This document shows positions 8,693-34,339 of a DNA stretch of 64,000 nucleotides, in pieces (within the stretch, counting starts at the first letter, position 1; each line of letters begins with the position of its first letter). The position numbers were made by a program, and so were the translations under genes. Source of the DNA: a virus (taxonomy: Duplodnaviria > Caudoviricetes). The notes beneath the pieces were generated by a model. That model was not told the DNA's origin. It saw nothing but the letters and a program-made list of their open reading frames with translations, and made no database searches. The DNA is taken from positions 32,001 to 96,000 of IMG/VR virus record IMGVR_UViG_3300010965_000001; one strand, given 5' to 3'.

Positions 8693-9223
8693 TTAGACAG
8701 GCGTAGTAAAAACGCCGAGCCCGTGAGAATGTGTGAAGTTAAATTTCGCTCCCTGTATCTCATTGAAGAATCGTCCCACGTCATTGGGGAAGGACATTGT
8801 ATCATGGAAGAGGATGATGCCGCCGGGTCGTACGAATTTAGACCACACTTCAAACACGGACTTAGTAAAGTCATACGAATGGAATCCATCGATGTGTAAT
8901 ATATCAATTGACTTATCCCATGTCTTCGCCACATCAAAGAAGTCACCTTCAATCAATACAACGTTGGTTACTTCATTATCTGCGATGTGTTGCTCCGCTA
9001 CTTGTTTTGCATTTCTAATTCCTGCGTGGTCATCACCCTTAAACCAGTCGATTCCATACACTGTGCCGATGTTAGGAAGTGCCCACGCGATAGTTGAGAA
9101 TCCAAAATCAACTCCCAAATCAACGGTGACTTCAGGCTTGATGAATTCTACTAAGGTATATGCATAGTCTTCGTGACCTCTCCATGCGGTTTCGATGTTA
9201 CCTTTAATTCGTTTTCGTTCCAT
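8693..9223 (-). CDS. class I SAM-dependent methyltransferase (Methyltransf_24-like)
   Basis: VDLGVDFGFS, GIDWF, IDILHIDGFHSY, VRPGGIILFHD. Confidence 0.85.
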   Translation of the reverse strand: MERKRIKGNIETAWRGHEDYAYTLVEFIKPEVTVDLGVDFGFSTIAWALPNIGTVYGIDWFKGDDHAGIRNAKQVAEQHIADNEVTNVVLIEGDFFDVAKTWDKSIDILHIDGFHSYDFTKSVFEVWSKFVRPGGIILFHDTMSFPNDVGRFFNEIQGAKFNFTHSHGLGVFTTPV

Positions 9224-9225
9224 TG

Positions 9226-10506
9226 TTATTCCTCTATGATTAATCCACTTGATAGTTCTGTGTGTTGTGTTATTAAATGTTTATCTGAAATTTTTACCTT
9301 ACGTTCTATTTCTATTTTGATGTTGTCGTATTCGTATTCACCTATCTCATACGTTTCTACTACACCTGCCAAACTTCCAACCAATTCAAACAACGATTTC
9401 CAATTACAGTTGGTGGCGTCGATGGTCACTAATGCGTTGTATTCAAAATATGGACCGCTGAAGAAGATATTGAAATAGTTTGTTGTATTGTAAAATCTAC
9501 GTGATGCGTTCCACCCCTCCATTGATATGTCAAGTAACTGATTTGGTATTGTATCTTCCATTAACTGCGTTGAGTTGATAGCACCATCGTGGAATTGTGA
9601 ATCCAACCACACTTTAGTAAAGTATGGTTCAAGGTTCTGAATCAATGACCAATCCATCTTATCACAATTCAATATTCTAAGTGATACATCATACTTAGTC
9701 AATGGTGTATTGTGACTAAATGTTCCCCATTTACGAATGAACTTACGCATTTCGAATCCGTCAGCCTGTTCCTGTAACTTAACTCTCTCCTGTGCCTGTG
9801 TATTATTAGTATCGAACCAATCAGTTCCTCTTGAACTAACACATGTGAAGTGGTACACGTTGGCTTTGAATGTCTGTTTAATCTTAATGCCACTATGCAT
9901 GAACTTCTGTAAGATGTCACTATCTTCTCTTGACCTGCGGAAGATGGAGTCATGCCCTCCAACTGACTGCCATGTCTTCTTATGATAGGTGAAGGGTGCG
10001 AAGAAGTATTCTTCGGTTCTATCACTCTTTACAGTAGTTGCAAATTCCATATACCCATCCCAATCAAACTTGTCTGGTGTGATACCGAAGTCCCGTGTAA
10101 AGGTTATGGGTGAGGGTGGATGTAATGGTGGTTCCGTTCTCGTGGCACTCAATATACAATTCTCTTCAAGGTCTTCTAACACATTCAAGTCATAGTCCTT
10201 GCTTACAATCATGTCAGACTGTAAGAAACTAACGATGTCATATTTTGCAAGGTCTGTAAGTATATTCACATTCAACTGATAACCTACACATTGATTCGGA
10301 AACTTATGCGTGACAATCTTTAAATCAAAGAACTCATGCTTGACACTCTTTAAGTATTGATATGTGCCGTCATTGTCTCTGTCAATGAACACGATTATCT
10401 CATGGTGCTTATAATGGAGATTCTCTTGTAATGACTTCAACAACAACTTCGTATAAGGTAATGTGTTAGCACCTGTATTAGTTATAAAACTGATATGATT
10501 ATCCAT
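9226..10506 (-). CDS. glycosyltransferase family 2 with C-terminal extension
   Basis: GT-A fold: IIVFIDRDNDGT, FLQSDM, VGGHD ... EDSD. Confidence 0.85.
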   Translation of the reverse strand: MDNHISFITNTGANTLPYTKLLLKSLQENLHYKHHEIIVFIDRDNDGTYQYLKSVKHEFFDLKIVTHKFPNQCVGYQLNVNILTDLAKYDIVSFLQSDMIVSKDYDLNVLEDLEENCILSATRTEPPLHPPSPITFTRDFGITPDKFDWDGYMEFATTVKSDRTEEYFFAPFTYHKKTWQSVGGHDSIFRRSREDSDILQKFMHSGIKIKQTFKANVYHFTCVSSRGTDWFDTNNTQAQERVKLQEQADGFEMRKFIRKWGTFSHNTPLTKYDVSLRILNCDKMDWSLIQNLEPYFTKVWLDSQFHDGAINSTQLMEDTIPNQLLDISMEGWNASRRFYNTTNYFNIFFSGPYFEYNALVTIDATNCNWKSLFELVGSLAGVVETYEIGEYEYDNIKIEIERKVKISDKHLITQHTELSSGLIIEE

Positions 10507-11479
10507 TCAACGCCTCATTAATTTTCTTTAAGAATTCTTCTTCTGCGAACTTAGTGTAATTGTATTTTGCTTCTTCACAACACATCTTGAAGAACTCGGG
10601 ATTACGTTGTAACGTCCACGCCAAATCCTTTGCCTTCTGAACATCATCGACATCCACAGAGAGATTTGGGTGACAGATACGTTGTGTGTCTACCTTCTCA
10701 TTACCTATACAGGGGATACCGAAGTATGCACAGTTGAGACTGAACGTACCTGCCGCAACCGTGGGCATCATGTGGACTGCATACTTGAAGGATGATAGGG
10801 TCTTCATCCAATCCAACCATTCAAGTCGTGGTAAATGTGTAAGTCCTTCTATGTCAAATTCCTCTTGTCTCGCCGCATGAGACGAAGGAACATAGATACG
10901 ATTCACAAACTCCTGTGCTACGATGTAACTCTGAAAGCCACCATACCACCTACAGAAGTTACCACCAATGATTGTTTTGTCTTCTGTGACAGGAACTATG
11001 TCCTTCACTAAGTCTTCAATCATAAGGGTCGGCATGACGTAAGTCTTCTTATCAAACAGACCTGAATAGAAATTCCTATCAGTCTCATTGTGAACGAAGA
11101 TTCCATCGGAACTTACGATTGCGTTATTGTAATGGAACTGATTGATTATCTCATACTCATTGAAGAACCACGATGGACCTTCTTGTACGAAGAAGACCTT
11201 CTTGTTATGTTGTTTTAACTCTCCAACAAAGTCTTCTTGAAATAATGGAAGATACTTGTTAGGAACGTCCACCATCTTAGAACCAACTGCATTCAATGAC
11301 ACATCACCTTTGGGGAAGATGATGAATACAACATCAAAATCCTTGACACCATTGAAGTGTGTAATTGGATAGTGAACTGCATTGAGTGCCGCCATCCATG
11401 CAAACTCTGTTCTCATGTTAGTGTGATTCCTATAGACAGGACCACTAAATCCCATCTCTGTTAAGAATGCTATTTTCAT
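10499..11479 (-). CDS. putative GT-B glycosyltransferase
   Basis: AAGTFSLNCAYFGIPCIG resembles the GT-B nucleotide-sugar-binding segment; cluster context. Confidence 0.6.
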   Translation of the reverse strand: MKIAFLTEMGFSGPVYRNHTNMRTEFAWMAALNAVHYPITHFNGVKDFDVVFIIFPKGDVSLNAVGSKMVDVPNKYLPLFQEDFVGELKQHNKKVFFVQEGPSWFFNEYEIINQFHYNNAIVSSDGIFVHNETDRNFYSGLFDKKTYVMPTLMIEDLVKDIVPVTEDKTIIGGNFCRWYGGFQSYIVAQEFVNRIYVPSSHAARQEEFDIEGLTHLPRLEWLDWMKTLSSFKYAVHMMPTVAAGTFSLNCAYFGIPCIGNEKVDTQRICHPNLSVDVDDVQKAKDLAWTLQRNPEFFKMCCEEAKYNYTKFAEEEFLKKINEALNG

Positions 11480-32768: not shown

Positions 32769-32784
32769 ATCTATAAATATCAGA

Positions 32785-33768
32785 TTACGCCGTAAAAAGT
32801 CCAAATTTCTTCCGTGGCTTCCAAGTTTCTAAGCAACTATCAATGTCGTGCATCAACCGTCTACTCATTTCACTTGCGGACATTCCGATTTCGGGATTTG
32901 TCACGAACTCACGTCCAGCCAAACCTCTACGTTCACGTTCCTCTTTACCCAAATCATATACTGCTTTGAGTTGGAGTGCGGCTTCCTTATAGTCTGGTCT
33001 GTCATCAAATATGTAAGGAGTTGGGGGTGAACCTTGTAAGGAACGATTGCTCGGCCAGACAGGGAATGCCCACTCACCCCAAGTCAATCTGTCGTTGTTC
33101 TTCCACAAGTCACGGTCATGCAAAGTTTGAATTTCAAGATAATCCTTAGCCGTCAAGAATTTACCATCCAACTGAAATCCACATTGGTCTTGCAATCCAC
33201 CAGTGACATTGACAATAGTTGGTGTTCCAGCCATAAGACCTTCACAAGTTCCAAGACCGAATCCTTCATTACTTGCCAAGTTGATTGAAACGTCTGCTAT
33301 GTTATGAATGAGATTCATAAAATTCGGTTCCAATCGATTTGCAGAAAACACTACCTTGTAAGGACAGAGTTCTTTAACAACTGCGATAAGGTCTGTTCCA
33401 TTCTCATCGATGGGTTGTGTGTGCATTACTAACGCACATCTGTCTGCTTCTTCTTTGGAAAGCATATCACAGAACGTCTTAAATGCCAATACCACATCGC
33501 CAGGCAACTTACGTCTGATATTCCTGTTAACAAACAAGACGGAGAAGTCGAACTCTGCACCACCGTAGAAGTCACGTTTCAGTTCCGTCACAAGTTCAGA
33601 ATCTTTCTTAACGACTTCGACTTCAACATCCTTGCCTTCGGCGTCTTTTGTTATCTGTTTCAATTTATGCTCAATGTCTGTAACACGAATGGGATAGAAT
33701 ATCGTTTCGTTTATTCCATGTGGTACGTATGTAACCGTTACAGGAGCTGGTGTGTAATTTTTTTTCAT
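32785..33768 (-). CDS. GT4-like glycosyltransferase, C-terminal part
   Basis: YVPHG, VNRNIRRK, NEGFGLGTCE, VTGGLQD. Confidence 0.8.
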   Translation of the reverse strand: MKKNYTPAPVTVTYVPHGINETIFYPIRVTDIEHKLKQITKDAEGKDVEVEVVKKDSELVTELKRDFYGGAEFDFSVLFVNRNIRRKLPGDVVLAFKTFCDMLSKEEADRCALVMHTQPIDENGTDLIAVVKELCPYKVVFSANRLEPNFMNLIHNIADVSINLASNEGFGLGTCEGLMAGTPTIVNVTGGLQDQCGFQLDGKFLTAKDYLEIQTLHDRDLWKNNDRLTWGEWAFPVWPSNRSLQGSPPTPYIFDDRPDYKEAALQLKAVYDLGKEERERRGLAGREFVTNPEIGMSASEMSRRLMHDIDSCLETWKPRKKFGLFTA

Positions 33769-33781
33769 TTCATAACCCTTT

Positions 33782-34339
33782 TTAATTGTTGATAACTTCT
33801 GAACCTGCGTCTGTCAACACATGTGAATGTATTCCATATGATTGCTTTGAAATTGACATTATCAAATCACATGATGCGTAGAAAGGTGCATTCCACCGTG
33901 GATACGGCAAATCATCCCAAAGTGCCAAATATGTGATTGGTGCTATTTGACGGAGTTCATGTTCCATTTGATACAACCATCCCCAGAAACGCGGGTCGGT
34001 GAAGTGCATGATAACGTCAGGTTTTTCAGCGTCCATCAGCATTCGAATTATGTTTTCATCTCCGTATCCACTGCAAGGATAGAGAATGACACTTGGGTCC
34101 GTAACCTTTAATTCTTCTTCGATTGCTTGATTCAAGTCTAACTTCTTACCTGCTTCGGGATGGTTGATTGCGGCACCCAATTGCACAAAGTTGAAGTGAT
34201 GGCATGTGCCTAACACCAATTCTCTGCTCATCGTTCCTATACCCGATGGGGTACGAAGGTCGTCGCTTAGCAATAATATTTTCTTACGTTTTGCTTTTGG
34301 TAACCACGGATAACCGTTTCTAATTGTTGTTGAATCCAT
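33782..34339 (-). CDS. GT4-like glycosyltransferase, N-terminal part
   Basis: KILLLSDDLRTPSGIG, FTDPRF, WDDLP, SISKQ. Confidence 0.8.
   Translation of the reverse strand: MDSTTIRNGYPWLPKAKRKKILLLSDDLRTPSGIGTMSRELVLGTCHHFNFVQLGAAINHPEAGKKLDLNQAIEEELKVTDPSVILYPCSGYGDENIIRMLMDAEKPDVIMHFTDPRFWGWLYQMEHELRQIAPITYLALWDDLPYPRWNAPFYASCDLIMSISKQSYGIHSHVLTDAGSEVINN

Follow-up and report, generated by a model that had tools for sequence, protein, structure and literature searches.

Clusters of glycan genes have been described in T4-like aquatic phages, in mycobacteriophages and in giant viruses. The cyanophages P-SSM2, S-SCSM1 and S-SCSM2R and the host-recognition cluster of pelagimyophages combine many glycosyltransferases (GTs; families GT2, GT10, GT11 and GT4/GT1) with nucleoside diphosphate (NDP)-sugar epimerases. 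The function of such lipopolysaccharide (LPS) or cell-wall clusters of T4-like marine phages has never been shown by experiment, and the papers describing them favour modification of the host surface (PMC12801897, PMC7029224). Mycobacteriophage virions are glycosylated by the phages' own GTs, and Che8 gp110 and Corndog gp38 are reported to be essential (PMC12363180). Mimivirus builds its fibril polysaccharides itself (PMC8456856). The present analysis concerns a 64,000-nucleotide window of viral DNA (bases 32001-96000 of IMG/VR record IMGVR_UViG_3300010965_000001) and, within it, a glycan island at window positions 8693-34339. That the island builds a glycan in the cytoplasm, independently of membranes, is well founded. 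Of the possible acceptors of that glycan, virion proteins are tentatively taken as the likeliest.

Islands of this kind are already known from cyanophages and pelagimyophages (PMC12801897, PMC7029224). Unlike the marine-phage LPS clusters, the present island lies between clamp-loader/nuclease genes and PhoH, not beside tail fibres, and it has a pathway for an acyl-branched dideoxy sugar. The mycobacteriophage cassettes (Che8 gp108-110, Corndog gp35-38 and that of Myrna) likewise encode soluble phage GTs and a methyltransferase-like domain with no membrane machinery, but they consist of three or four genes without a sugar-nucleotide pathway in actinobacterial siphoviruses, whereas the island has 29 open reading frames (ORFs) in a T4-like myovirus. 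When Che8 gp108-110 and Corndog gp35-38 were compared by phmmer with the island and all genome ORFs, the sole match was between gp108 and the Methyltransf_24 gene of the island. Che8 gp108 (locus L208, 16172-17347) is annotated as a glycosyltransferase; its similarity to window 8693-9223 is weak (phmmer 1.6e-5 in a small database), and it may contain a methyltransferase domain. Giant viruses, with the chlorovirus capsid and Mimivirus fibril glycans, likewise use their own sugar-nucleotide synthesis, multi-domain GTs and methyltransferases in the cytoplasm, without host membrane glycosylation machinery (PMC8456856). Those viruses infect eukaryotes and their glycans and acceptors are known, whereas the island is known from genes alone and its likeness to them is at fold level only (TM-score about 0.4). 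Bacterial O-antigen and capsule loci of the Wzx/Wzy or ABC-transporter type are likewise co-directional blocks of NDP-sugar, GT and methyltransferase genes, but the island is without any membrane step and its GTs are acidic and belong to virus-specific lineages.

The source contig is viral, 210,562 bp long with 38% GC, and is rated 100% complete by CheckV; nearly all of its genes lie on the minus strand. The gene content (PolB, clamp loader, PhoH, tape measure and others) points to an uncultivated T4-like phage. Two DNA sequencing data sets from one sample may be its source, with no RNA data set listed for that sample. Megablast of the island DNA against sequenced phages gave zero similarity, and the sole blastn matches of the flanks to phage DNA were short and lay in the ligase and clamp-loader genes.

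The earlier note on this DNA had reported that none of the island ORFs shows a multi-pass membrane profile, and a Kyte-Doolittle scan for transmembrane (TM) segments with a 19-residue window agrees, with zero segments in the island ORFs. An apparent TM segment in the 5' extension of the ORF at 29469-30026 was gone once the better start was taken (ATG 29885, with a GGAGG ribosome-binding site). The note had named flippase or polymerase genes elsewhere in the genome as grounds against its view; the complete genome holds no flippase, polymerase, ligase or initiating transferase. Family searches for Bac_transf, the WecA/MraY family, Wzy_C and Polysacc_synt were run with positive controls, which matched. 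The initiating phosphoglycosyltransferases WbaP/PglC (PF02397) and WecA (PF00953) gave no match at E<=1 in the complete genome, from which Wzx (PF01943) and Wzy/WaaL (PF04932) are also absent. Among genome ORFs no shorter than 150 aa, four hydrophobic segments or more occur in just two, a 757-aa tape-measure-like protein and a 347-aa protein with five TM segments (genome 167630-168673; L205:1131-2174); an ABC-2 transporter is likewise missing. The 347-aa protein was considered as a Wzy and rejected, and it is unlike Wzx too, as it consists of three TM segments, a long coiled coil and two TM segments, with no Pfam match. It has an acidic tail and is 30% identical to a 339-aa protein of a 296-kb relative (G004).

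The same holds for related loci. At least 145 viral loci were recovered from IMG/VR using the thiamine diphosphate (ThDP)-dependent enzyme of the island; 80 were compared gene by gene, and the 63 of at least 15 kb (1.29 Mb) were scanned for membrane proteins. On the bacterial side, 80 loci around homologous ThDP genes were compared and the 55 of at least 15 kb scanned for polytopic proteins. A polytopic ORF, taken as one of at least 250 aa with at least six hydrophobic segments, was present in none of the 63 viral loci, as against 45 of the 55 bacterial loci. Full-length scans of three near-complete relatives (219, 160 and 296 kb) yielded neither polytopic candidates nor Wzx, and no polymerase, ligase or initiating transferase either. 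Small proteins with three or four TM segments near the relatives' islands were considered as GtrA/ArnE-like flippases and rejected, being Phage_holin_4_1 proteins. Hydropathy scans of the island, the genome and the relatives revealed no integral membrane modifying enzyme or flippase of the seroconverting type. The lack of membrane machinery is more than chance and is a property of the lineage.

In LPS-core and lipooligosaccharide (LOS) synthesis, transferases that lack TM helices add the sugars to lipid A in the cytoplasm, and the host's essential MsbA and Lpt export the product. Because such glycans use host MsbA/Lpt, and because a host Wzx or ABC transporter could be borrowed, absent membrane genes are not proof of a soluble acceptor. 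The earlier note had drawn a soluble acceptor from that absence, which alone does not imply it; its inference is upheld in part by the GTs, which look soluble, being acidic and without hydrophobic segments. Eight of the nine island GTs have an isoelectric point (pI) of 5.0-5.6, and that of GT4a is 7.2. GT2 proteins from viral loci (n=86, from 55 loci) have a median pI of 5.42, with none above 8 and none with a hydrophobic segment, against a median of 8.59 for GT2 proteins from matching bacterial loci (n=88), 55 of which have a hydrophobic segment. Bacterial GT2 proteins without such a segment (n=33) have a median pI of 8.61, and 76% exceed pI 8. The sugar enzymes, used as a control, have median pI values of 6.37 in viral loci (n=414) and 6.03 in bacterial loci (n=285). 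For comparison, the Waa core transferases of E. coli K-12 (n=9) have a median pI of 7.67 (range 6.3-9.8), and mycobacteriophage cassette proteins (n=7) range from 4.7 to 8.5, with six of the seven below 7. Acidic viral GTs without hydrophobic segments favour a soluble acceptor and speak against work at an anionic membrane surface.

The boundaries given in the earlier note are right. The 29 minus-strand ORFs overlap or lie 1-19 nt apart, with the single exception of a 62-nt gap at 27514-27575. They comprise nine GT genes (one split into two ORFs) with ten GT domains, two methyltransferases, about 12 sugar-pathway enzymes, a Pol-beta-fold nucleotidyltransferase, two homing-endonuclease-like genes and three small unknowns; the last two groups are the non-glycan ORFs, about five of the 29. 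Annotation by Pfam, NCBIfam, PHROGs and the ESM Atlas (features and structure search) bore out the gene list of the note (GT2, GT4, GT8-like, GT10, GT11, DUF3431, two methyltransferases and NDP-sugar enzymes), with DUF3431 as a candidate GT. In transcriptional order, with window coordinates, the features are as follows.

33782..34339, minus strand: N-terminal (acceptor-side) half of a GT4, the island's first gene; aligns with residues 1-178 of single 464-495 aa ORFs in seven related phage loci; Atlas features like the Glyco_transf_4 N-domain, score 0.90
32785..33768, minus strand: C-terminal (donor-side) half of the GT4; Pfam Glycos_transf_1 6.1e-5; aligns with residues ~178-468 of the fused relatives
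32061..32768, minus strand: Pol-beta-type nucleotidyltransferase-fold protein; Pfam NTP_transf_2 3.3e-5; probable start ATG 32768 by start analysis
30722..32041, minus strand: GT4 glycosyltransferase, GT4a, a conserved frame gene; Pfam Glycos_transf_1; homologues in 18 viral loci
29866..30720, minus strand: homing-endonuclease-like mobile element (NUMOD1/helix-turn-helix) abutting GT4a; Pfam NUMOD1 6.3e-5; no homologue in related loci
29469..29885, minus strand: small zinc-ribbon protein; CPKC...CETC in the translation; weak zinc-ribbon matches; weak homologues at the same position in seven loci
29008..29472, minus strand: small acidic helical protein by its translation; phrog_34511, PHROG 9.3e-18
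28379..28996, minus strand: GT2 glycosyltransferase, GT2b, a frame gene; Pfam Glycos_transf_2 5e-8; homologues in 21 viral loci
27576..28361, minus strand: second homing-endonuclease-like gene (NUMOD3 motif); PHROG homing endonuclease 4.3e-4; NUMOD3 0.01
27541..27574, minus strand: early-type promoter TTGACTTT-N13-GTATATT, copy TTGACTTTGACTAAATAATTTCGTATATT, a genome-wide motif filling the island's sole real intergenic gap
26566..27513, minus strand: GDP-fucose-synthase-like 3,5-epimerase/4-reductase (to NDP-6-deoxy-L-hexose); NCBIfam GDPFucSynFcl 5.3e-51, below cut-off; Pfam Epimerase 3.5e-41
25203..26573, minus strand: E1/RfbH-type NDP-4-keto-6-deoxyhexose 3-dehydrase, start ATG 26573; NCBIfam RfbH (NF011936) 436.6 bits against a cut-off of 423; PDB 3BCX 4.6e-89
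24329..25201, minus strand: GT11 (alpha-1,2-fucosyltransferase family); Pfam Glyco_transf_11 7.1e-22
22612..24318, minus strand: two-domain GT2 + GT10; Pfam Glycos_transf_2 7.9e-15 (residues 6-148) and Glyco_transf_10 1.3e-8 (residues 407-524)
21669..22634, minus strand: GT8-like (GT-A fold) glycosyltransferase; Atlas structure search, TM-score 0.55-0.66 to Glyco_transf_8 clusters
21052..21660, minus strand: DUF3431 protein, candidate glycosyltransferase; Pfam DUF3431 4.3e-7, 30.3 bits against a cut-off of 25
20099..21052, minus strand: NDP-glucose 4,6-dehydratase (RmlB-like); TIGR01181 5.5e-87, 291.8 bits, under the equivalog cut-off of 365.1; GDP_Man_Dehyd 7.1e-55
19528..20088, minus strand: orphan ORF with no Pfam match and no homologue in related loci; probable start ATG 20088 by start analysis
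18731..19531, minus strand: HpcH/HpaI aldolase (aldolase/citrate-lyase family), candidate maker of the alpha-keto-acid side-chain donor; Pfam HpcH_HpaI 5.2e-12
18087..18731, minus strand: classical short-chain dehydrogenase/reductase (SDR; FabG-like), always paired with a 3-dehydroquinate-synthase (DHQS)-like gene by synteny in viral and bacterial loci; adh_short_C2 4.5e-43
17794..18102, minus strand: small HAD-type phosphatase; TIGR01689 capsule biosynthesis phosphatase 1.9e-4; copies 67-77% identical in 18 viral loci
16749..17792, minus strand: NeuB-family phosphoenolpyruvate (PEP)-condensing synthase (maker of an ulosonic, that is alpha-keto, acid); Pfam NeuB 8.9e-40; PseI/NeuB NCBIfam matches far under cut-off
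15019..16752, minus strand: YerE-like ThDP-dependent carboligase (branch-forming); three TPP domains; best PDB match 8rph (JanthE) 3.9e-103
13993..15015, minus strand: DHQS-like enzyme (TIGR04425 type); TIGR04425 6.1e-80, below cut-off; DHQ_synthase 3.4e-30
13062..14012, minus strand: probable ASKHA-fold sugar kinase (weak); sole match BcrAD_BadFG 0.017; conserved beside the DHQS-like gene in viral and bacterial loci
12308..13060, minus strand: S-adenosylmethionine (SAM) methyltransferase at PHROG level; phrog_21658 methyltransferase 2.3e-8
11476..12306, minus strand: extended SDR (RmlD/epimerase-like), candidate YerF-type reductase; Pfam Epimerase 3.3e-20; present in 63 of the 80 viral ThDP-gene loci
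10499..11479, minus strand: GT4-like GT-B glycosyltransferase of a virus-only lineage; Atlas model pTM 0.87; TM-score 0.74-0.76 to GT4 clusters; nearest clusters 94-100% viral
9226..10506, minus strand: GT2 with a second alpha/beta domain, GT2a, the frame gene at the 3' end; Pfam Glycos_transf_2 1.3e-7; AF2 pLDDT 92.3
8693..9223, minus strand: Methyltransf_24 SAM methyltransferase, the island's last gene; Pfam 8.2e-19; weak similarity to Che8 gp108

The GTs belong to the viral world. Their nearest Atlas clusters are 92-100% viral, and no homologue of an island GT is detectable in bacterial loci with the same sugar genes, although the sugar enzymes do have homologues there, at 30-55% identity. 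The island is not a captured host O-antigen cluster, because its GTs lack homologues in the bacterial loci. The ORFs at 33782-34339 and 32785-33768 are halves of one enzyme, since fused orthologues exist. Seven relatives have a single collinear ORF of 464-495 aa, and this phage and two others keep two intact ORFs. The break falls at the boundary of the two Rossmann domains, and the ORFs lie 13 nt apart with a purine-rich AAAGGG before the second ATG. PDB sequence searches with 33782-34339, 10499-11479, 21669-22643 and 9226-10506 gave no useful match, and a PDB search with GT4a gave weak matches only, to WbaZ-1 and Gp27. The fold search with GT2a returned generic GT-A matches only (TM-score about 0.4), one uncultured-phage orthologue and distant giant-virus GT2 matches; its best PDB fold matches, also at a TM-score of about 0.4, are the two-domain GT-A polymerases K4CP and PmHS2. 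These matches of a predicted structure are silent on the acceptor. Orthologues of GT4a in at least 11 protein clusters (proteins P0003-P0018) contain an intein (PF14890, some with LAGLIDADG PF14528), and five further orthologues are fused to a GT9-like domain of the heptosyltransferase family. Inteins in glycosyltransferases are unusual. An extra GT2 lies outside the island at window 44992-45696 and is the genome's best GT2 match (68 bits); its neighbours are a metallophosphoesterase (45693-46337) on one side and an early promoter on the other, and it is upstream of a DUF4338-like gene and PolB.

Acyl-branched deoxy sugars have been explained by a unifying scheme in which a YerE-like enzyme joins an NDP-4-keto-3,6-dideoxyhexose to an aldolase-made alpha-keto acid, with a reduction to follow (Steitz et al., PMC9306805). 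The caryophyllose cluster aldolase MMAR_2331 is of the aldolase/citrate-lyase family (PMC9306805). As far as their sequences tell, the sugar genes of the island match this published scheme for an acyl-branched 3,6-dideoxyhexose, with a 4,6-dehydratase, E1, a YerE-like enzyme, an aldolase or NeuB-like enzyme, and reductases. E1 aligns over its full length with Yersinia E1 (PDB 3BCX), including the PAHH and CxC...C cysteine-cluster stretches. In the PDB search the ThDP enzyme matched JanthE (8rph) at 3.9e-103 against 1.8e-77 for acetolactate synthases, and JanthE has been described as a YerE-like carboligase (PMC12188165). The partners of the ThDP gene in the 80 viral loci are E1 (73/80), the 4,6-dehydratase (66/80) and the extended SDR (63/80). 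For the YerF-type reductase step two SDRs are present, the extended SDR being the candidate. There is good probability that the island product includes an acyl-branched 3,6-dideoxy sugar.

The bacterial pathways for yersiniose A (YerE/YerF), erwiniose (ErwE/F/I/J), caryophyllose (MMAR_2331-2333) and gastriose follow the same enzyme logic, including an NAD(P)H reductase and a SAM methyltransferase (PMC9306805). In contrast to these, the present pathway is phage-encoded, lacks E3 and a cytidylyltransferase, and has an RmlB-like rather than a CDP-type dehydratase; it also has both the HpcH aldolase and the NeuB-like/HAD pair, plus a DHQS-like enzyme and a kinase. No paper tying a yersiniose-type or acyl-branched pathway to phage genes was found in the literature. 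Sugar-1-phosphate nucleotidylyltransferase (PF00483) is absent across the genome, so NDP-glucose must be supplied by the host, and E3 (AscD-type) reductase (PF00175 + PF00111) is likewise absent across the genome, so host reductases must serve the E1 branch.

The NeuB family condenses PEP with an aldehyde to a 3-deoxy-2-ulosonic acid, itself an alpha-keto acid. None of the 80 bacterial loci has a NeuB-like and an HpcH gene next to the same ThDP gene, whereas this phage has both. The classical SDR and DHQS-like pair can accompany either of them in bacterial loci L082-L160, from many phyla. This exclusion leads us to read the NeuB-like and HpcH enzymes as alternative suppliers of the side-chain donor with a shared downstream pair. 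A pattern search for the DHQS-like protein on viral contigs came back empty, and tblastn on the loci fetched with the ThDP enzyme found it. One locus classed as bacterial (L081; RGCF01000194.1, a 5.6-kb contig in a 'Bacteroidetes' metagenome-assembled genome) has NeuB-like, ThDP, SDR, DHQS-like and kinase genes in phage order, with 34-64% identity to this phage, far more than any other bacterial match (about 40%). This contig is probably a piece of a phage that was placed in that bin.

In the relatives the gene order starts with the GT4 (fused or split), GT4a, sometimes the zinc-ribbon ORF, GT2b, E1 and others, and the 4,6-dehydratase; HAD-NeuB or HpcH, the ThDP gene, sometimes SDR-DHQS-kinase, the extended SDR, sometimes a methyltransferase, and GT2a follow. 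The frame genes and sugar cassette keep this order and position at 35-77% identity in dozens of viral loci; the middle varies from phage to phage, and at most 17 of the 29 genes are common to any locus. The island is flanked by PhoH (7862-8650) on one side and by small ORFs and PD-(D/E)XK nuclease, Mom-family and clamp-loader genes on the other. The nuclease (35636-36517) and the Mom-family DNA-modification gene (36517-37272; 2.3e-48) lie just upstream of the island. Among relatives the most frequent neighbour is the PD-(D/E)XK nuclease (nine loci), with clamp-loader subunits in five or six and PhoH in five; locus L210 is a further case. Conservation of these neighbours places the island at a plastic site among the replication genes and not among the structural ones. 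Elsewhere in the window (46350-49229) is a 959-aa class II-like ribonucleotide reductase with an intein (Intein_splicing, residues 157-427).

Two promoter motifs recur in the genome. The early-type motif, TTGACTTT-N13-(T/C)GTATATT, has the classical -35/-10 form (TTGAC / TATATT) and occurs 44 times on the coding strand and 13 times on the other, counted over the whole genome, for example at window positions 3834, 27574, 41695, 44990, 53722 and 55457. This form is unlike that of Bacteroidota promoters and speaks against a host from that phylum. The early-type motif is concentrated in small-gene arrays and also stands before polymerase-region genes; the copy at 27574 precedes the distal 20 genes of the island. 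The late-type motif, TATTTATA, occurs 40 times against 10 on the other strand, often 15-45 nt before a ribosome-binding site and ATG, the tape-measure-like gene included. A late-type copy at 32779 was rejected as the promoter of the nucleotidyltransferase-fold gene, as only 3 nt separate it from the ATG. Scans for generic sigma-70 promoters and terminators gave no excess over shuffles, and the phage's own early-type motif was the sole informative one. Judging from these motifs, the island is probably expressed early or in the middle of infection. Such timing would leave the acceptor undecided, given that the Che8 glycosylation genes likewise lie far from its structural genes.

These features suggest the following mechanism. 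The RmlB-like 4,6-dehydratase would convert host NDP-glucose to NDP-4-keto-6-deoxyglucose, which would feed two branches. In one, the Fcl-like epimerase/reductase (26566-27513) would presumably produce an NDP-6-deoxy-L-hexose, which suits the GT10 and GT11 domains. In the other, E1, together with host reductases, would produce an NDP-4-keto-3,6-dideoxyhexose, to which the YerE-like ThDP enzyme would add an acyl side chain from an alpha-keto acid made by the HpcH aldolase and/or the NeuB-like synthase with the HAD phosphatase; SDR reductases would complete this branch. The nine soluble, mostly acidic GTs would then assemble a hetero-oligosaccharide or polysaccharide, to be decorated by the two SAM methyltransferases. 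As the acceptor, a soluble macromolecule is preferred to a membrane lipid; the likeliest choice would be one or several structural proteins of the phage, so that the virion would be glycosylated as in mycobacteriophages and giant viruses. Enzymes made from early or middle transcripts could act on late proteins as these appear.

Several observations weigh against this mechanism with a virion acceptor. The island lies in the replication module, away from the head and tail genes; its sole clear internal promoter is early-type, and it has no well-placed late-type motif. No striking Ser/Thr-rich structural protein that could be a candidate acceptor was found in the genome, and the translations of the two small island proteins (29008-29472 and 29469-29885) are not acceptor-like. 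The pI contrast is statistical and has exceptions, such as E. coli WaaB at 6.3 and the essential Che8 gp110 at 8.5. With regard to the sugar, the roles of the NeuB-like, DHQS-like and kinase genes are assigned by gene neighbourhood only, and the 4,6-dehydratase and Fcl-like enzyme score under NCBIfam cut-offs; the carrier may be dTDP, CDP or another nucleotide. The acyl-branched sugars known to date occur in LPS, LOS and antibiotics, and glycoproteins are not among their sources (PMC9306805). 

LPS clusters of T4-like cyanophages and pelagimyophages are usually taken to modify the host envelope (PMC7029224, PMC12801897). On that view the soluble phage GTs would extend a host lipid-linked acceptor on the inner side of the membrane, either lipid A-core or a WecA/WbaP-primed undecaprenyl-PP-sugar, with export by host MsbA/Lpt, Wzx/WaaL or an ABC transporter. 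Families GT2, GT4 and GT8 are typical of LPS-core and O-antigen synthesis, LPS and LOS are known to contain acyl-branched 3,6-dideoxy sugars (PMC9306805), and the early-type promoter and replication-module position suit an early host-directed role. Since E. coli Waa core enzymes are mostly without a TM helix, the missing membrane genes are compatible with it as well. The seroconverting phages known so far each encode one or more membrane proteins, such as GtrA/B, a type-specific Gtr, Wzy or an acetyltransferase. However, no membrane protein of this type is present here, in the 63 related loci or in the three near-complete relatives. The viral GTs are also far more acidic than those of bacterial loci and more acidic than the E. 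coli core transferases, they lack homologues in bacterial loci, and a glycan made by nine enzymes would have to suit a host flippase, ligase or transporter. On our assessment remodelling of the host envelope is less likely than a virion acceptor but keeps a fair probability; if it took place, the changed cell surface could exclude other phages or keep progeny off debris. Soluble acidic enzymes, absent export genes, the early-type promoter and the failure to find an acceptor would also suit a different soluble target, such as non-virion proteins of host or phage, or a free oligosaccharide, glycolipid or small glycoconjugate acting in the infected cell or after lysis. There is no phage precedent for a nine-transferase system of this kind, and frame GTs conserved over at least 145 viral loci around a variable middle resemble surface-glycan diversity more than a metabolic product, which makes such a target distinctly improbable.

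The earlier note had listed DNA beside capsid and tail proteins as an acceptor, and DNA is unlikely in that role. In this case the GTs would glycosylate modified bases of the phage DNA, as T4 does with hydroxymethylcytosine; the island adjoins replication genes and a Mom-family gene, and phages are known to glycosylate DNA, according to work cited in PMC12619734. However, neither a ThyA-family dCMP/dUMP hydroxymethylase (PF00303) nor a TET/JBP dioxygenase (PF12851) is present in the complete genome, the acidity of the enzymes is unusual for DNA-binding enzymes, and GT10, GT11, a branched dideoxy sugar and O-methylation suggest a long heteroglycan and not a base adduct. DNA hypermodification is accordingly given very little credence. 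Slightly less still is given to decaying cargo, that is, a mosaic of captured bacterial genes whose pathway no longer works. The split GT4, the two interrupting homing-endonuclease-like genes and the missing E3 and nucleotidylyltransferase fit this picture, but all 29 ORFs are intact and tightly coupled, dozens of viral loci share the frame genes and cassette at 35-77% identity, three phages preserve both ORFs of the split GT4 intact, and GT4a is conserved enough for inteins in relatives. A protein of the virion, tentative as it is, therefore stays the preferred acceptor.

A bolder and more doubtful form of the virion reading is that widespread large aquatic T4-like phages, represented by the at least 145 IMG/VR loci, coat their own virions with a methylated heteroglycan made entirely by the phage in the cytoplasm, as a counterpart among bacterial viruses to the autonomous glycosylation of chloroviruses and Mimivirus. 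One of its sugars would be a 3,6-dideoxyhexose with a long acyl branch, for which a NeuB-type ulosonic acid or an aldol product would supply the side chain. We know of no report of such a sugar from any virus or protein.

Four points are new: a phage carries the branched-sugar pathway, the island has a fixed site among the replication genes, its GT frame is virus-specific, and the contrast with bacterial loci is quantified. The lineage-wide lack of membrane steps, the acidic virus-specific GTs and the conserved frame at a fixed site shift the question of the large LPS-like clusters in marine and freshwater T4-like phages toward a soluble acceptor, probably the virion. With genes for a YerE-like carboligase and its partner enzymes close together, the island offers a compact natural supply of enzymes for rare branched sugars, and such chemistry circulates on phages. 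If the virions are glycosylated, there would be consequences in natural waters for the stability and adsorption of phages, for grazing and for how sticky the particles are, and autonomous viral glycosylation would extend from giant viruses and mycobacteriophages to abundant environmental myoviruses.

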